Positions 48,453-64,000 of a DNA stretch of 64,000 nucleotides are shown here, piece after piece (the first letter of the stretch is position 1; each line of letters begins with the position of its first letter). The position numbers and the translations under genes are program-made. The notes beneath the pieces are model-generated. The model saw nothing but the letters and a program-made list of their open reading frames with translations, did not search any database and was not told where the DNA came from. Origin of the DNA: a virus (Duplodnaviria; Caudoviricetes); the IMG/VR virus record IMGVR_UViG_3300021431_000079, positions 64,001 through 128,000 of that record; one strand, given 5' to 3'.

Positions 48453-51400
48453 TTAAAAGGACGCTTTAAAAAAAAAGGACACTTGGGACGCATCCCCTTG
48501 CCAAAGCCGTAGTGCGTGGCTGTAAATAACGGACGGTGGGATGCACGACAACCTGTTGGAAGAAGGCTTGGGTTGTCACTTAAAGGAGATATATGGTGGA
48601 AGCACTCAATAAGCGAGAAATTCATGAACAGCTTGATGAAATCAAAAGTATTGTTGAGATGAATGTTCATCCTGCTGTTTCGCCTGACAACTGGTATATC
48701 TATTCAAATCTGCATGATGAACTTGAGCAACTTGAACTGTTATTAAAACGAAATAACGTAATTTAAATAAAATTGCGGTTTCGCCACAGTATCGTTGATG
48801 GGCGTGTAATAAATAGGTGTGTAGCCTACTTGCAAAGACCTTCCGCATTCTATATTAAAGGGCGATTTGAAGCACAGGAGATAATTTTTAATATGCTGTT
48901 AGCGATATGCTTTTTATGCTTACCCTTTGCATGGACATATATGCTCTATATCTTATGCAAAGAAATAGACGAATTGTAATTTAAAGGGGTAATAAGACTA
49001 TGGCGATCATGAAATGGGAAGAACTTTCTAATGAACAGAAACAGGAATGCTACATGTCCTACTGCGAGGATGTGCGCTATGAGTGGGGAGATAGAGCTAA
49101 ACCGATGTCATACGATGAATGGTGCAAAGAATCAGAGGAACTTGGTGAAGCACTTTATTAAATGAGTTTGGATATGTGGATAGTCCCATTACTTATTGCT
49201 GTTGGATTTGGTGGCATTATTGTGCTTTTTGTGCTTATTGATAAAGATGAATCATAACTTAAAAAGGGAGTTTTGGCATGATGGATGATTGGAAATTATG
49301 GAGGTTATGGTTTATATTTACCATCGTCTGCTGTGTGCTATTAGTTATCCTTGACATTTTAGGTGTGCCAATTGATTAAAACGAGCAAAGCAATGAGAAG
49401 GCGAATTGACGCTACAATTTATTTTGGCGAAAACAGAAAAGAAACAACCGTTTTTGTGGATGAAAATGCCACATATGAAGAGATCTATGATGCAGTCATG
49501 AGCGATGCTTTAGACATGATCGAAATTGAGTGGCACGAAGTTGAAACTGCTTTTTAACGGATGCTTAAAAGGAGGGCTGAGGTGTGATCATTATTTTTGC
49601 AATAATCGTTATAATTCATGCACTTTGGTATACATTTTTGTATGTCGAGTGGCGTAACGACTGTAAAGAGATATGTAAAGAAAATCTTGCCGTACCTTTA
49701 TCAGAGCGGTTGTATAGCTCGTTCTTTTATATTACAATTCCATGTTTTGTTGGAGTGTTAATGGGTTTGTTATGAAAACTTTTCAATTTAAAAGTAACTG
49801 TCTTAATTGCAAATATCATTTAGATAATTGTATTTGTGGAAAAGATGGCACAGATACAAGTGAATGGTTTATGGATGAGGTAACATGTTGTGAGCTATCC
49901 GAATCAGCCAAACAGTACGAATACACAATAAATACAACGCTAAATTAAAGGGAGGCAATATCAATGGAGAAGTATTCATACTATCTGGGCGGGAAACTGT
50001 ATTTTGTCTTGCTGTCACCAGAAGAAAAAGTGCTTTTTGAGAATCGGTATGGTGTGTGCCTGTCAATAGTACGTTAAAAGAGGAAGAGGCAGAGTAATGT
50101 TCACGAAAAAGAAAAATGCAAGATTTGGCAGATATCCATGTTGTGATATGGTCAATAACGCCATAAGGCTCATCGCAAACGGAAAAACAGAACATGCCAT
50201 TGAAGAATTATATATGGCTATACAGAAAGCTGATGGTTATATCCATGAAGACCTTATTGATATAGTCAACGAGGCTCATAAGCAAACATGGAGTGAACGG
50301 CACGGTTTTGATTATTGAGGTACGATTAATGAGCGTGATTATTAAGTGGTCATTTACAAATTAAAAGATCGGAGTATCGTATGGCATATAATATTGGTGA
50401 CACAAGGGTGTTTTATAGCCAGAAATATCGAGACGAAAAGGCAGACAAACTTGAGAAAATGGGATATCGCATTAAACGATATGATGGCCTGACCAATTAT
50501 TTTTTCAAGGTGCTGGACACCCCAAGTCGTTTCTAAAGGACGCTATGGATGAGAAGAAACTAAAAGGTTTGTGTAGAAATTGCATGTATCGTAAAAGATG
50601 TGAAGATGCTAAACGGTATCTCAACATGATTGCATGTTCCAGTTATAGGATACATGGCAATAGGAAGAAACTCACTAAAAGGAGTGTAATCATGAATACT
50701 GTCTATGATTTTGAAACTGCTATCAGCGAACTGATGGACAAGGCATTGAACAAACTTTCTCCGAATGAATTTGAAGTCCTTAAGGACAGAGTTTCTGTGA
50801 TTCTTACGGAGTATGACTAACATTAGAGACGCATATGGGAGCTAACACGAGAAATGAAGGAAACATTTTTAGAGCTGTGTAAACTTTGGTCATTTGTACA
50901 CTTCTGCGAATGGAATGGAACGTACACAAAAGCGATTGACGCATGTAAGAGAATTGATGTTGTCGCAAAAGGACATCCAGTGCTCAATTTTTTAGCGCAA
51001 CATTTTTGCTCATTCTTTTGTTAAAGGATGTTTATAAATGGGAAAAATTATATGTGTATTAACTGTATTTTTAGTGCTTTATTTGATATTAGCCGTTTTT
51101 TATGATGACTGGTTTTTCTTTAAGTAAAGAAGTTCGATCAATGAATGTTAGAAAAGACTGTTTTTATTACGAATATAACATAAGTACCAACACTGATTGT
51201 TGCACATGCAACGAATTAGGAATTTGTCAATGCTCAGATACCTGTGAAGATTATGTGGATAGAGAGGAAATGTCTCAGTCTATTCTTCAGATATTAGAAA
51301 GGGTTTATTAAACGGTGTTTATGAATGATCAAGAAACATAAAATGAGTAATAAGCTTAAATGGTGTTTAGGTTTTAGCAAAGCTGTCGATCTTCGTGGGC

Positions 51401-51990: not shown

Positions 51991-53072
51991 ACGTATATGG
52001 AAGGAGATTGTTTATTTTTATTATGAATTTATTATTTTACAATAATAATGGCGAATGGCATAAACTGTGTGAAACATCTGAGTTTGAAGTAACCAATATA
52101 GAGACAGAAGAGATTACAGAAGGAAAACAGCAAACTCTAATGTTCGATGGCCACTATTCGTGTGATGGAGTGTTCACCCTTACAAAACAATCAAGAATCA
52201 AATTGTTGCAAAAAGTATTTTGTATGTCCAACAACTGGTTGCGTATGCATGGGTATCCGATGAAAAAGAAAAGGGAGTAACTATGATCAACGGATTAAGA
52301 TTAAAAAACGCCTTATTGTGTCAAACAGGAGAGGGTAAAAAATATTGCAAGCATTGTTCGTATAATAACGATGATAAATGTGATATTAAAAAACTCTCGT
52401 CAGATGTGTTGGAGTATATCAAAACGGGTGAAGACACTTTTAATATGCTACAAGATGAATTATTAAAACACATGAAAGCGTCGGAGGGAGACCTTCAAAT
52501 AGAACGAATAAATAAACATAATTCTTTCTTTGTACCAAAAGAGGAAGAGCCAACTTATAAGTGGATAATAGATGGACATCATATTATTTGTGAGCACTGT
52601 GGAATGTGTATGTGTAGGACAGATAGAGAAGGTGACACAATCCCGCATAACTTTTGTCCTGAGTGTGGTGTGAGGATGGAAGAAATAATAGAAGGGTAAT
52701 GAAAGAATGGATGGATATTGTGCAAAGCATAATCGACCATGGACTATTATATGTATTGGATTCAATGAATGGGGCTATGGATGCCCTGAATGTCAAAAGG
52801 AAGGAATGCTTATTCCATCATATAAAGCAGATACAATAACAATAAACACTCAACAAGGATGGGACAATAAAATGGAAAATCAACGAAATGAATTAACGAA
52901 CGACAAAGAAGACAATAAATGCAGGTGTTGTGGCTATCATGGTTTGGAGCAAGGGGATACGTTATATATTTCTGCTGACTGGGATGGTGGAATCGGATTC
53001 GATTACATTCGCAATATAAAATACTGTCCTGTTTGTGGTAAAAAGTTACCCGAAACGTGATGAGGTGTTGTG

Positions 53073-53249
53073 GTGAAGAGATATAGATGTATAGAGTGTA
53101 AACATTGTAATGAAGATGAAAAGAAATGTTATCCTCAGTCGAAAGATTGTCAGGCTGAATATGACTTAACAGAAGATGATATTTATGAGTATTCAACCGA
53201 ACGCTGTGATTTCTTTGAGGCGAAAGTTGAGAAGATGGAGGATGCATGA
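53073..53249 (+). CDS. Small Cys-rich protein, paralog of 63283-63456
   Basis: MKRYRCIECKHCNEDEKKCYPQSKDC...; below the ORF-track length cutoff; 40/57 identities with the minus-strand copy by hand alignment. Confidence 0.75.
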   Translation: MKRYRCIECKHCNEDEKKCYPQSKDCQAEYDLTEDDIYEYSTERCDFFEAKVEKMEDA

Positions 53250-54103: not shown

Positions 54104-55939
54104 GTGAGGTTAGTTATGAGAGTAGAAAATAATCAACCAAGAAACATAGCTATATATGCACGAGTATCTACAGAACATGAGGCACAACTATATGCTCTTG
54201 ACAATCAAATAGACTGGTACGAAATCATACTACAGAGTCACCCCAATTGGAATATCATTCATAAATATATTGACAGGGGAATCACTGGAACATCTGCAAC
54301 AAAAAGACCACAATTCATGCAGATGATAAAAGATGCAGAGAGTAAAGAGTTTGATCTTATCATCACTCGTGAGGTTTCGAGGTTCGCAAGAAACACAGTT
54401 GACACATTACAGTACACCAGACAATTGAAAAAGATCGGAATAGAAGTCTATTTCGTTGAGGATAACATCTGGACATTTGATGCAGATGGTGAGTTGAGAC
54501 TAACTATTATGGCAACTCTCGCTCAAGATGAGAGTAGAAAAACATCACTGAGAGTTAAAGCAGGACAAAGGGCAAGTATGGAGAAAGGTGTGTTCTTTCA
54601 GAACGGAAGCATACTTGGATACGATAAAATAGGTAACAACATGGTAATAAACCCAGAACAATCTGCTACTGTCAAATTGATATTTGATCGGTATAATTCA
54701 GGGATGGGTGTTCGTAAAATTCAATGGGAGCTTGAATCACTTGGCAGAAAAACAGCCAAAGGTAGCACAAAGTGGACTGCTTCTGTAATATGCAGAATCT
54801 TGAAGAACAAATTCTATGCAGGATACATTGTGTGGTACAAGCAATTCGTTCCTGATTTTCTTGAACAGAAGAAGATCAATAACCACGGAGAGAAAGAGCA
54901 GTTTGAAGTTCTTGGAAGTCACGAGCCAATAGTATCTCTTGAAGATTGGGAGCTTGCTCAGAGAAGATTGGAGCAATCAAGTCAGATAGTCAACAAGGGT
55001 AGAAAGGTCGGTGCTAAACCTAAGACAGGGTTATGGACAAACAAGCTTAGATGTTCATGTGGTAGATCATTCAACAGAAAGATATGGCACAAGGATAAAA
55101 AAGATGGATCAATCCAATATGGATACCAATGTTACAGCAGTATAAAGTCTGGATCAGTTGCAACAAGAATAAATAAAGGCTTGCCACTTGATGGAATCTG
55201 TAAGAGTCCTGCGATCTCAGAGTGGAAGCTTGAAGCAATGGCACTATATATTTTCAAAGATTTTACCTTCAATAAAGATAGAATCATCCAACTTGGAATG
55301 CGTGAAATAGAAAAAGCATTAAGGTCTGTTAATAATAATGATAACAAAGAACAAATAAATAGTCTAAAAAATGAGCTTGACAAATACAATAAAAAGATAG
55401 ATAATCTAATCGAAATGCGCACAGATGGGGAGATCTCTAAAGAGCAATTCACCGCAAAGAAAAAGGACTTTGAAATCGAGATAAACAGAATAGAGAAAGA
55501 GATAGAATCAATAAGTGATAAGCAGGATGCCATTAAAGATATCCCACAGTTATTGAGTGAGTTCAAAGCAAATTTAACAAGCATGTTGAACGAGCCTATT
55601 GTGGATAAAGTGCCTGAGTATATTATTGATGCTATGGTTGAGTATATCTTGGTGGATGAGAATAAGTTCACTTGGAAGCTACGCTATCCATCTGATAAGT
55701 ATTATTTATCTATTGATGGTAGTAAAAAACAGCATACAGTGTCAGAAAGTCCATCTTTACGTCAATGCCTCACAGGCTGCAATACACGAAATGCGGAACA
55801 AGCAGTAAACAATATCTCATTTACAAACGATTCTATCCTCATCTTATTTGATAAAAAGATGGTACAGCAATATGGCAATCTCAAACCAACAGATAGAATC
55901 CACAGATGGTATGATATTGTGATCGAGATTATTTTTTAA
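54104..55939 (+). CDS. Large serine recombinase (probable integrase)
   Basis: YARVSTE, DRGITGT, SRFARN, recombinase domain, C.CG...C zinc ribbon, coiled coil; true start may be a few codons downstream. Confidence 0.92.
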   Translation: MRLVMRVENNQPRNIAIYARVSTEHEAQLYALDNQIDWYEIILQSHPNWNIIHKYIDRGITGTSATKRPQFMQMIKDAESKEFDLIITREVSRFARNTVDTLQYTRQLKKIGIEVYFVEDNIWTFDADGELRLTIMATLAQDESRKTSLRVKAGQRASMEKGVFFQNGSILGYDKIGNNMVINPEQSATVKLIFDRYNSGMGVRKIQWELESLGRKTAKGSTKWTASVICRILKNKFYAGYIVWYKQFVPDFLEQKKINNHGEKEQFEVLGSHEPIVSLEDWELAQRRLEQSSQIVNKGRKVGAKPKTGLWTNKLRCSCGRSFNRKIWHKDKKDGSIQYGYQCYSSIKSGSVATRINKGLPLDGICKSPAISEWKLEAMALYIFKDFTFNKDRIIQLGMREIEKALRSVNNNDNKEQINSLKNELDKYNKKIDNLIEMRTDGEISKEQFTAKKKDFEIEINRIEKEIESISDKQDAIKDIPQLLSEFKANLTSMLNEPIVDKVPEYIIDAMVEYILVDENKFTWKLRYPSDKYYLSIDGSKKQHTVSESPSLRQCLTGCNTRNAEQAVNNISFTNDSILILFDKKMVQQYGNLKPTDRIHRWYDIVIEIIF

Positions 55940-61656: not shown

Positions 61657-62646
61657 TTATGAGCAATATCTATAATAAGCGTTTTTAACGTTATCCTTTT
61701 CGATGTAAACATATTTCATTGTGGTGTCAATTTTGTCGTGACCCAAAATATAAGCCACATCCTGAATCGACATACCACGCTTAATTAAATTCGTTGCAAG
61801 TGTTCTTCTAAATCTATGCGGATGAACATTCACAACACCAACTTTTTCAGATAACTTTGTCAACATAAATCTAACTCCATGCTGAGTTAGTCTTTCTGAT
61901 CTCTTACCAATTCCAGAGAAGAGAGCTTCGCTATCATCCGTTCTACTTTCAAAATACTGCTTGAGATACATAGCCGTGATATCATCTATGTAAACAGTAC
62001 GCTCCTTATTCCCTTTACCAAGTACACGCACTTCAAGATTCTTGAAATCAACATCGCTTTTATTTAATCTTGTCACTTCACCGATTCTACATCCAGTAGA
62101 AATAAGAAAACAGACAAGCGCCTTATCTCTGATATTAATACAACCTTCTTTTAATTTCTCTATTTCAACACTGTCAAAAGGTAGTCTTTCTAACTTAGCA
62201 TACTTAATCCTACTTAGATTAATGCATGGATCAGTAGGGATAAGATTTTCTCTAAATAACCATCCGAAAAACGAGCACATGACACTTCTATATCCATTCA
62301 ACGTTCTATCAGATATTCCACGACTTTTTAATCCTGCTAAATAGTTTCTAATGTGATATACACTTATATCTCTGGTTGGAACATTGATCTTTTCATACAT
62401 CTTCTCAAGCACATAACGATAATGCCCCAATGTCTTTGAAGAACAACCTTCAATCTGCTTAGAGGAGATAAATGCATCCAATAAGTCTGCGCTATCATCA
62501 TTTTTAATTTCATCAATATTAACAGAACAGACAGAGAGATTATTCGCAACAACTTCCATCACCATAAACAGATCATCATATGACAACTTCGATATAAGAT
62601 CGTTTTTAATATTTTTAATTAAAACCTGCTTATCAGCAATTGACAT
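61657..62646 (-). CDS. Tyrosine recombinase (XerC/D-like, N-terminal SAM-like domain)
   Basis: STGCRIGE, GKGNKER, HPHRFRRT, LGH, catalytic Y in TMKY; GAGG RBS before ATG at 62646. Confidence 0.92.
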   Translation of the reverse strand: MSIADKQVLIKNIKNDLISKLSYDDLFMVMEVVANNLSVCSVNIDEIKNDDSADLLDAFISSKQIEGCSSKTLGHYRYVLEKMYEKINVPTRDISVYHIRNYLAGLKSRGISDRTLNGYRSVMCSFFGWLFRENLIPTDPCINLSRIKYAKLERLPFDSVEIEKLKEGCINIRDKALVCFLISTGCRIGEVTRLNKSDVDFKNLEVRVLGKGNKERTVYIDDITAMYLKQYFESRTDDSEALFSGIGKRSERLTQHGVRFMLTKLSEKVGVVNVHPHRFRRTLATNLIKRGMSIQDVAYILGHDKIDTTMKYVYIEKDNVKNAYYRYCS

Positions 62647-62692
62647 AGCATATACCTCACAATAACACACAAGCAACTATAATGTTATAGCA

Positions 62693-62721
62693 ATTATAAC
62701 ATGAGACAATATAAATGTCAA
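62693..62721 (-). promoter_or_regulatory. Consensus sigma-A promoter for the tyrosine recombinase
   Basis: TTGACA-17 bp-TATAAT with TG on the minus strand. Confidence 0.8.
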
Positions 62722-62764
62722 TTTAAATATAATGTAAGATATAAATAATAGCTAATAAAACAGT

Positions 62765-62803
62765 CAAAAATAGCCCCGCTCTATAATATAGAACAGGGCT
62801 ATT
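62765..62803 (-). terminator. Terminator upstream of the recombinase promoter
   Basis: AAATAGCCC...GGGCTATTT hairpin with T-tract on the minus strand. Confidence 0.7.
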
Positions 62804-62895
62804 TATTATTATATCGTATTCAGTTTTTATTCAATTTTTATTCGGTTTTTTATTTTAAGTACATTGTGTTGTGATGCGAAAAAGGCCGTTCATAT

Positions 62896-62914
62896 TACTT
62901 ACCAAAAGCGTCCT
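62896..62914. repeat. 19-bp direct repeat, copy 1
   Basis: TACTTACCAAAAGCGTCCT, identical at 63825-63843. Confidence 0.9.
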
Positions 62915-62928
62915 ACTAATGTTAGGTA

Positions 62929-63147
62929 TTATACACTATTAGTATCTACTGTCCTCTCCCGATGGAGATGCTCTTTGAACATTCGACAGTCACTTTGCAG
63001 GCAAGCTTTCTCGAACGGAGAGTCACAAGATGCAGAACCGTCAGAATTGTAATAAATGTGCTTACAATTGTCGCACGTTTCTATTCTGTGTTCTTTCCCG
63101 TGTTTCCGCTTACGTCTTTCCAACAGCCATCTTGTCACGATACTCAT
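62929..63147 (-). CDS. Small Cys-containing hypothetical protein
   Basis: TAAAAGGAG RBS before MSIVTRW. Confidence 0.6.
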   Translation of the reverse strand: MSIVTRWLLERRKRKHGKEHRIETCDNCKHIYYNSDGSASCDSPFEKACLQSDCRMFKEHLHRERTVDTNSV

Positions 63148-63165
63148 TAGCGCTCCTTTTACAAT

Positions 63166-63240
63166 TTGCGGCATAGCAGAATCGAACTGTCTATTATACG
63201 GTGTCACGCACTCGCTCTCTACCCTTGAGATAATGCCGCA
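63166..63240 (-). pseudogene. Pseudo-tRNA / tRNA-like element
   Basis: TGCGGCAT/ATGCCGCA stem, CTC-AAGGGTA-GAG D-arm, CAG-TTCGATT-CTG T-arm; abnormal anticodon arm. Confidence 0.55.
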
Positions 63241-63282
63241 GATTGTTTATGGTGTTTTAACATAAAGCCATAATAAACAGAT

Positions 63283-63456
63283 TTATACACTCATGTTATT
63301 TACTTTCGGTTTATAAAAATCACACCTTTCAGTAGAATAGTCATAGATATCATTATCTGTAAGCGCATATTCACTGAGACAATCCCTCGATTGAGGATAG
63401 CACTTCTTTTCATCTACATTACAATGTTTACATTCTATACACCTATATTTCTGCAT
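63283..63456 (-). CDS. Small Cys-rich protein, paralog of 53073-53249
   Basis: MQKYRCIECKHCNVDEKKCYPQSRDC...; GAGG RBS. Confidence 0.75.
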   Translation of the reverse strand: MQKYRCIECKHCNVDEKKCYPQSRDCLSEYALTDNDIYDYSTERCDFYKPKVNNMSV

Positions 63457-63593
63457 AAATAATCCTCATTTGCGTTCTATTATATGTAGGTATATTACAC
63501 CATTGATATATACATTCCTCTCCTGATACCGACTGTCCTACATTGACAACAGAGTGCCTACTTTGGTACACTAATGTCGAGGAGGTGATACGG

Positions 63594-63779
63594 ATGGGTA
63601 TCAATGGAGGCCGTAACATCCGGGGAGTTGAAGAGGAGGGTGGATATACCAAATTCAACATCACTCTCCCTCCGTCCCTGATCGAGCGTCTGGATAAGTA
63701 CATGAGGGAAGAAGAACGCAACCGCTCATGGACAATCCAAAAGGCACTCGATGCTTACCTAAGAGAGAAGGGCTATTAA
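63594..63779 (+). CDS. Ribbon-helix-helix (CopG-like) regulator with its own promoter and terminator
   Basis: KFNITLPPSLIERLDKY...RSWTIQKALDAYL; GGAGG RBS; TTGACA at 63543; hairpin spanning the stop. Confidence 0.8.
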   Translation: MGINGGRNIRGVEEEGGYTKFNITLPPSLIERLDKYMREEERNRSWTIQKALDAYLREKGY

Positions 63780-63824
63780 GCCCCTCTCTTTTTGTCTCCC
63801 CTGATAACCACCAGTAGTTATTGA

Positions 63825-63843
63825 TACTTACCAAAAGCGTCCT
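63825..63843. repeat. 19-bp direct repeat, copy 2
   Basis: Minus strand reads CTTAAAGGACGCTTTTGGTAAGTA right after a stop codon. Confidence 0.9.
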
Positions 63844-63848
63844 TTAAG

Positions 63849-64000
63849 TTAGTTGCTCGGCAGTAATGATTTTATCTTACCGCCAATAAGGTTACCAATC
63901 CGTTCCCGTCCTTTTTCGTTCGGATGTGTTCCATCATCAGCCGGATAGAAATAAAGCCTTGTAAACGGGTTAAAACTTGTTTCATGATAAAGGTCAAGAA
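63849..64000 (-). CDS. C-terminal fragment of an SGNH/GDSL hydrolase domain (partial; probably a tail-associated module)
   Basis: LDLYHE...DDGTHPNEKGRERIG (DxxH block V). Confidence 0.65.
   Translation of the reverse strand, partial: LDLYHETSFNPFTRLYFYPADDGTHPNEKGRERIGNLIGGKIKSLLPSN

Follow-up and report, generated by a model that had tools for sequence, protein, structure and literature searches.

What is an exact 19-bp repeat doing between the gene for a tyrosine recombinase and that for a tail fibre, and does it connect the two? The question is raised by positions 61,657 to 64,000 of a 64,000-nucleotide stretch of phage DNA (the 'window'), corresponding to bases 64001-128000 of IMG/VR record IMGVR_UViG_3300021431_000079, a tailed-phage genome of 165,006 bp with a completeness rating of 'complete'. 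Working down the minus strand, we see the N-terminal anchor of the fibre, a site that we call A, the enzymatic C-terminal module with its stop codon, and site B; below this come a gene for a ribbon-helix-helix (RHH) protein, a gene of 57 amino acids (aa), a tRNA-like element, a 72-aa open reading frame (ORF), site C, a hairpin, a promoter and the recombinase. Sites B and C hold the two copies of the repeat and bound a block of 929 bp. The 19-mer looks, from sequence comparison, like the conserved portion of a short recombination site that marks swaps of fibre tips and small genes in many rumen/gut phages, frequently beside an Xer-like recombinase. Site-specific exchange of cassettes at these sites is, in our judgement, just on the probable side; that the neighbouring Xer-like recombinase is the catalyst, a proposal made from co-location, we put at roughly an even chance.

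The 19-mer, TACTTACCAAAAGCGTCCT, is exact at 62896-62914 and 63825-63843, as the first-pass annotation of this DNA had stated, and these are its only copies in the 165,006-bp genome. A search of the whole genome allowing up to 4 mismatches returned no third copy, and no match to the repeat was seen in 100 shuffles. A chance repeat is thus ruled out (0/100 shuffles, together with the two-copy count), as is a generic junction motif of stop codon and ribosome site spread over the genome, CTTAAAGG being present only 7 times. On the gene strand the 19-mer consists of the core GGACGC followed by the arm TTTTGGTAAGT, with a single extra base at each end. Comparing the 11 nt either side of the core across all copies, in this genome and in related loci, we see a site of 28 bp with an 11-6-11 design, of which the 19-mer covers the 6-bp core and one 11-bp arm. 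The site is asymmetric, in that the core and the arm facing the cassette are constant whilst the outer arm varies with context; even so, the variable outer arms conform to a single consensus, either ACTGACTTAAA as such or its reverse complement. At site C, for instance, the outer arm is found in other contexts as ACTAACTTAAA, ACTGATTTAAA or ACTGACTTATT (window + strand), in each case matching the family arm. Sites A, B and C share one (direct) orientation, and when the 165 kb are scanned for 11-6-11 dyads of the family arm only A and B reach at least 16/22.

Site A lies within the fibre gene. Further copies had been anticipated beyond position 64000, as in-frame motifs inside tail genes; what is found there is an in-frame TDLKSAL, but no near-exact copy of the 19-mer (<=4 mismatches). 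This in-frame copy, predicted to mark a swap of tail modules, falls exactly at the boundary of a natural one. A sibling phage (L009; 164,319 bp, from a neighbouring sample accession), compared with the present genome over ~14 kb only, is 100% identical over 6,297 and 5,991 bases on either side of a fibre C-terminus that has been replaced: a GDSL module of 1,581 bp in our phage, a peptidase M14 module of 1,740 bp in the sibling. The identity stops inside the core of A and returns 3 nt before the core of B. The sibling's M14 module is absent from the present genome; the M14 form is found again in a JGI-indexed metagenome contig belonging to another data set, and a JGI scan with the RHH promoter returned the M14 sibling only. 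Across the loci compared, the fibre modules found at B-type sites are GDSL, M14 and GDPD. At the 3' end of the GDSL module, the right-hand copy of the 19-mer does indeed follow directly upon the stop codon of the SGNH-hydrolase, as first described, lying 5 nt from the fibre TAA (63849-63851).

The RHH gene provides a second view of these sites, through the number of contexts in which it occurs. An identical 61-aa RHH protein is encoded on 15 public contigs, with differing neighbours. In six contexts for which sequence was compared, a 365-bp RHH unit is enclosed by two sites, the element-side arms of which are constant and the outer arms specific to each context; in loci L013-L017 the RHH gene is the sole gene of the unit. 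On the left, three contexts are seen (recombinase; amidase; a hairpin plus 183-aa gene), and on the right at least eight different gene ends, including those of M14 and GDPD modules. As with dif modules, we thus have one module in different backbones, with breakpoints at the core or arm. In locus L016 the recombinase context recurs at 92% identity with the RHH unit only, the 564 bp that carry both of the small cysteine-rich genes ('micro-genes') being missing; and upstream of the recombinase in L005, a 94% relative, differences cluster only within the outer arm of site C. Several contigs from relatives also finish at these points, 12-50 nt past A (L012:3671-3698, L015:1808-1835) or 26 nt past C (L005:1-45), an indication that the assembly graph branches at these very points between co-existing variants. 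A search for a larger contig carrying the second of the left contexts gave the same 2.2-kb contig only. The proposal that the 19-mer serves for swapping and capture is therefore borne out as far as natural phages differ by whole units at a junction around TTAAAGGACGCTTT; its attribution to the neighbouring recombinase we retain as a candidate assignment.

If the outer arms are joined across the core, an undivided site should have the form ACTRACTTAAA-GGACGC-TTTAAGTYAGT; the inner part of this was used to scan IMG/VR. Thirteen contigs were recovered, against a chance expectation of <1 match (a rough estimate, for which the size of the collection was assumed). In 12 of the 13 the site begins at, or just past, the TAA that ends a sizeable ORF. 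Of these ORFs, eight are longer than 500 codons; where their modules can be assigned they are GDSL or M14, mostly with an A-type arm ~40-290 codons into the gene. The architecture of A, B and recombinase is also present beside recombinases of 47-57% identity in four other lineages (L028, L018, L030 and L037). In siphovirus-like L028 (57% homologue), a receptor-binding protein gene contains an A-type site and has a GGACAC site at its stop, with a second GGACAC site following a WDGH gene, then an antisense helix-turn-helix gene and the recombinase; L018 has a GGACAC site between a 495-aa gene and a convergent recombinase; and in L030 (53%) and L037 (47%) the homologues are found 255-350 nt after the site. 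All told, in at least five lineages a homologous recombinase gene is found at a distance of 135-380 nt from a site of this type. Near the recombinase genes of distant relatives, a search for generic dyads yielded terminator hairpins only, before the family motif was brought in.

Taken together, fixed ends, a single core, hybrid and undivided sites, presence or absence of whole units and a linked recombinase family constitute, at the level of sequence, the pattern of unit insertion at a tyrosine-recombinase core. We infer an exchange of the site-specific, not the homologous, kind, with cleavage that would take place within the 6-bp core. Mechanistically, strands would be exchanged within this core by a tyrosine recombinase, the adjacent Xer-like enzyme being the likeliest candidate; a homologue from a co-resident phage could act in trans. 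Recombination of B with C would excise the 929-bp block, or integrate it, as a circle, and, in a co-infection, two genomes recombining at like sites would trade the adjoining unit, the enzymatic tip of the fibre included. Loss of the tip through recombination of A with B would be disfavoured by their differing cores (GAGCGC in A, GGACGC in B).

The candidate enzyme has the two-domain fold of the Xer proteins, comprising a SAM-like core-binding domain and a catalytic domain. Its closest solved relatives are XerA (PDB: 4a8e; 4e-29) and XerD (PDB: 1a0p), with which the catalytic residues R (RIGE), K (GKGNK), H..R (HRFR), H (LGH) and Y (KYVY) are in register; the catalytic set is thus apparently intact. 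Against the NCBIfam XerA model NF040815 it scores 219.6 bits where the cut-off is 220, falling 0.4 bits short, and it scores far under the cut-offs of the XerC, XerD and XerS models; judged by these profiles, it is Xer-like, yet fails the XerA equivalog threshold. The models for integron integrases fit poorly (TIGR02249, 56 bits against a cut-off of 265; NF011946, 36.6 against 435). Its family is very large and metagenomic, with members of ~328 aa, and an alternative TTG start at 62676 would lengthen the protein by 10 aa. The first-pass annotation correctly gave the gene a consensus promoter of its own, placed a fibre gene after it (collagen-like, and itself followed by lysis genes) and noted a separate, large serine recombinase, which we find at 54104-55939.

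A perfect 8-5-8 palindrome, ATGTTATA GCAAT TATAACAT, at 62682-62702 overlaps the -10 box of the recombinase promoter and is also kept in L005. As read from its sequence and position it may be an operator, perhaps of the RHH protein, which could then regulate either this promoter or the genes downstream. Distant relatives of the recombinase are present in L006-L008 (54% identity; gene at L006:8001-8990), in the order GDSL fibre gene, a gap of 44 bp, recombinase and then a 2852-aa protein. These recombinases translate properly only if TAG is read as Gln, so the phages in question appear to be stop-codon recoded.

Table 1. Sites, genes and signals of the locus. Positions are those of the window; site sequences are given on the gene strand.
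Feature	Position	Strand	Evidence or sequence
Xer-like tyrosine recombinase, 329 aa	61657..62646	-	PF00589 1.2e-34; SAM-like N-domains (PF13495/PF02899)
Recombinase promoter, TTGACA-17-TATAAT with TG extension, sigma-70-type	62693..62721	-	12/12 consensus matches
Terminator-like hairpin, 18-bp stem, between site C and recombinase promoter	62768..62804	.	89% complementary, 1-nt gap
Site C, holding the left 19-mer copy	62897..62924	-	TAACATTAGTA-GGACGC-TTTTGGTAAGT
Cys-rich ORF, 72 aa, ribosome-binding site TAAAAGGAG	62929..63147	-	called as gene in public assemblies
tRNA-like element (pseudo-tRNA)	63167..63239	-	Rfam RF00005, 31.2 bits vs gathering 29, E 3e-4
Cys-rich gene, 57 aa	63283..63456	-	ORF
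Decayed internal site, core GCGTTC on + strand	63461..63488	-	alignment of cassette starts
RHH promoter, TTGACA-18-TACACT with TG	63543..63572	+	TTGACA and TACACT boxes
RHH (CopG-type) DNA-binding protein, 61 aa	63594..63779	+	PF01402 1.3e-6
Site B, holding the right 19-mer copy; fibre stop in left arm	63826..63853	-	ACTAACTTAAA-GGACGC-TTTTGGTAAGT
Tail-fibre gene, 624 aa, GDSL/SGNH esterase C-terminus	63849..65723 (window-equivalent; 63849..64000 within window)	-	PF13472 1.2e-16; PHROG tail fibre
Site A, inside fibre gene, reads TDLKSAL in frame	window-equivalent 65414-65441 (L003:4414-4441)	-	ACTGACTTAAA-GAGCGC-TTTAAATTGGA

The contents of the 929-bp block are largely as first listed: the RHH gene, a Cys-rich gene, a pseudo-tRNA and an ORF preceded by a ribosome-binding site are all present, but what had been described as 'another small ORF' is Cys-rich as well, so that there are two such genes. 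No match to the 72-aa ORF was found in Pfam, PHROG or NCBIfam, and no similarity between the 72-aa and 57-aa proteins is detectable. The 57-aa gene has a paralogue at 53070-53249 (+), of 80% nucleotide identity, in which the open frame and Cys pattern are kept. The tRNA-like element lies within the 5' region of the 72-aa ORF and has a cloverleaf-like fold with an aberrant anticodon arm; ARAGORN makes no tRNA call at 63167-63239 and a tRNA function is, in this respect, unsupported. The RHH gene, on the strand opposite to that of its neighbours, is equipped with a promoter and a terminator of its own.

Where the RHH cassette meets the micro-gene block there is a decayed internal site, followed by a second copy of a cassette leader of ~56 nt; since the two mark that border, the block is itself an array. 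The conserved leader opens each cassette (62915-62970 and 63480-63535, also 63283-63307), and its TATAAT box faces outward on the minus strand, such that cassettes may bring a promoter into the next unit. Elsewhere in the window a 14-mer, AAAGGACGCTTTAA, at 48454-48470 (+), identical to bases of the core and inner arm of the site family, heads an array of micro-genes; with the 57-aa paralogue nearby, the two arrays may therefore be linked.

As for the host, the clues favour Clostridia of the rumen or gut. The Ruminococcaceae metagenome-assembled genome RUG13034 (L022; CACZXQ010000033.1) has an RHH homologue (63% identity) in a prophage-like region, where its neighbours are a GDSL fibre gene, an endolysin gene and a 328-aa Xer-like recombinase. 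That region has no recognisable site of the present family; AATGGCGGTTGTA and ACTGAGCCGCCGCAGT each occur twice between its RHH and fibre genes. Among known isolate phages none was found with this locus, the matches being to collagen repeats only. The termini of the phage record itself (G000 1-70 vs 164940-165006) overlap by ~60 nt that are near-identical and include a long run of T; rather than truly linear, the assembly is thus circular or circularly permuted.

A number of observations weigh against site-specific exchange by the resident enzyme and are best considered together. Neither an unoccupied site nor an excised-circle junction was found for the backbone of this phage, IMG/VR and JGI scans with the exact 19-mer, the RHH right junction and the predicted empty dyad giving 0 matches; nor was a donor of the M14 module found among the loci fetched. 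Site A falls within a conserved protein motif, AADAK..GDEI.DLKSA, which in L021 is conserved at the nucleotide level too, with neither a B site nor a recombinase nearby; the conservation of A may, accordingly, be due to coding. Of the thirteen IMG/VR contigs with a site, ten have no recombinase homologue at E <= 1e-10, two of these being estimated at 92-100% complete, and a link between enzyme and site is therefore not obligatory. The dyad symmetry of the IMG/VR sites is in part imposed by the search pattern, and the free outer half of the left arm, where it is not, is weakly symmetric and confounded by the stop codon. The recombinase family is also found away from fibre genes, one relative (the P0009 context) having it in the early region and not beside the fibre-like genes of the same contig. 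Finally, homologous crossovers at any point in the flanks would account just as well for the identity of L009 and L010 on both sides: the flanks are 100% identical for ~6 kb and do not show where the crossing over took place.

This last point leads to the strongest of the alternatives, which we nonetheless regard as rather unlikely: that we are looking at ordinary mosaicism, produced by homologous or relaxed homologous recombination. On this account the fibre linker (~70-90 nt, ending at TDLKS) and the RHH region are patches of homology, the 'sites' are simply the places where homology between modules ends, and the recombinase has another job, such as multimer resolution. The unlocatable crossovers and the ten contigs lacking a recombinase both speak for it, the linker retains 70-82% nucleotide identity even in phages without B sites, and relaxed homologous recombination by Rad52-like phage proteins is documented for temperate phages (PMC3945230). 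What mosaicism leaves unexplained is why three left and at least eight right contexts should meet the RHH unit at one 6-bp core with family-type arms, and why the non-coding outer arms of C-type sites should be the reverse complement of a coding arm at A. Nor does it account for a motif of ~22 nt just past the stops of unrelated enzyme modules in 13 further phages, or for the proximity of homologous recombinase genes to such sites in the several lineages described above.

Improbable, to a greater degree, is the reading that fibre genes carry at their 3' end an RNA or regulatory element (a stem-loop whose loop is GGACAC, a protector of the mRNA 3' end, a terminator or an RHH operator) that has been duplicated here along with adjoining DNA. 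Complete B-type sites can fold into an 11-bp stem with a 6-nt loop right after the stop codon, they are always at gene ends, between fibre and lysis or recombinase genes, and RHH proteins do bind short repeats. Set against this, it is the sequence of the right arm that is conserved, with changes in the left arm going uncompensated, and no U-tract follows the stem. Site C and the other left sites, having one family arm, can form no stem at all, yet their core and arm are kept; and outer arms that vary with context are unlike an operator travelling with the RHH gene. An inversion switch of the shufflon or Mu-G type, alternating fibre C-termini within one genome as in the analogy drawn by the first-pass annotation, has next to nothing in its favour beyond a tyrosine recombinase beside a fibre gene and a 19-bp core-plus-arm that recalls sfx sites: A, B and C are direct, the 165 kb hold no inverted copy and no silent alternative C-terminal segment, reading inward from site C gives a 62-aa antisense frame only, and the exchange we see is between genomes.

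Fibre-tip exchange is the main route by which phages change host and is usually credited to untargeted homologous recombination. It is possible, if short of an even chance, that a system of rumen/gut Firmicute phages uses an Xer-like recombinase and short asymmetric sites to swap fibre tips in frame and to capture small genes; equally tentative is the suggestion that cassette exchange would give phages a site-specific means of changing host range, separate from those offered by invertible segments, diversity-generating retroelements or homologous mosaicism. If true, a 28-bp site and a dedicated recombinase would make fibre-tip exchange a programmed, testable reaction, and would explain the breaks in assemblies at the fibre genes of these phages. 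The logic of dif modules and integrons would then extend to the structural genes of viruses, the cassette being a protein domain joined in frame; the swapped tips would be receptor-destroying ones (esterase, carboxypeptidase, phosphodiesterase), and the sites that serve for the swap would also capture small genes of a regulatory or accessory kind. The locus may also provide a compact natural pairing of recombinase and site. Because such sites can readily be searched for, existing metagenomes would serve to check the idea.

In the literature searched, we found no description of fibre modules bounded by such sites beside a phage Xer-like recombinase. By analogy, the locus would appear to work most like dif modules or IMEX arrays, and it also resembles integrase-less integron arrays. 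With the linker-based mosaicism of fibres it has in common a conserved N-terminal anchor, variable receptor-binding or depolymerase C-termini and a swap at a conserved motif; it differs in that the 3' border too is a defined short motif, common to unrelated modules and to non-fibre cassettes, and statistically linked to one recombinase family. The classical switches of phage tail fibres, Mu Gin and P1 Cin, use serine invertases. The premise, given as established in the first-pass annotation, that tyrosine recombinases act in this way at phage tail-fibre genes is a loose one, Rci acting on a plasmid pilus adhesin at asymmetric sfx sites of which only the core and one arm, 19 bp, are conserved (PMC11852207). 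The R64 shufflon does resemble our locus in having a tyrosine recombinase, a diversified receptor-binding C-terminus and sites with one conserved arm; there, however, the sites are inverted and the segments resident, whereas here the enzyme is Xer-like, the sites are direct and exchange is with other genomes, and because of this orientation and the lack of resident alternatives the locus is not a shufflon.

The single-recombinase systems XerA/dif, XerS/difSL and XerH/difH come close in three respects, XerA being the best match to our enzyme, the geometry being 11-6-11 and the gene lying beside its presumed site (PMC5357621), but they employ one site per replicon for dimer resolution where here several would delimit exchangeable phage units. 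Integrons likewise place an Xer-related tyrosine recombinase beside small mobile units with sites at the 3' ends of those units, and integrase-less arrays occur. In our locus, by contrast, the sites are 28-bp cores of duplex type, where attC sites are long folded hairpins; an attI/Pc arrangement is lacking; and the cassettes bring promoters of their own and differ in orientation (that of the RHH gene being opposite), with internal sites that have decayed. Since the IntI model, the type of site and the organisation of the cassettes all fail, it is not an integron. As to sequence, our sites presumably bear little resemblance to that of Firmicute dif. The nearest likeness is to the pdif modules of Acinetobacter plasmids and to IMEX elements integrated at dif, in which small modules, often of RHH or toxin-antitoxin type, lie between 28-bp, 11-6-11 Xer-type sites in many backbones, arranged as tandem arrays with hybrid sites and with many of the carriers having no recombinase of their own (PMC6449649, PMC13141974, PMC6744903). 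Small gene modules between 11-6-11 sites in differing backbones are thus common to both systems. The differences are that the carrier here is a tailed phage and the candidate enzyme a single phage Xer-like protein, as opposed to the host's XerC/XerD; that the sites are direct where pdif modules alternate in orientation; and that one of them lies in frame within a structural gene, so that a protein domain becomes the cassette.

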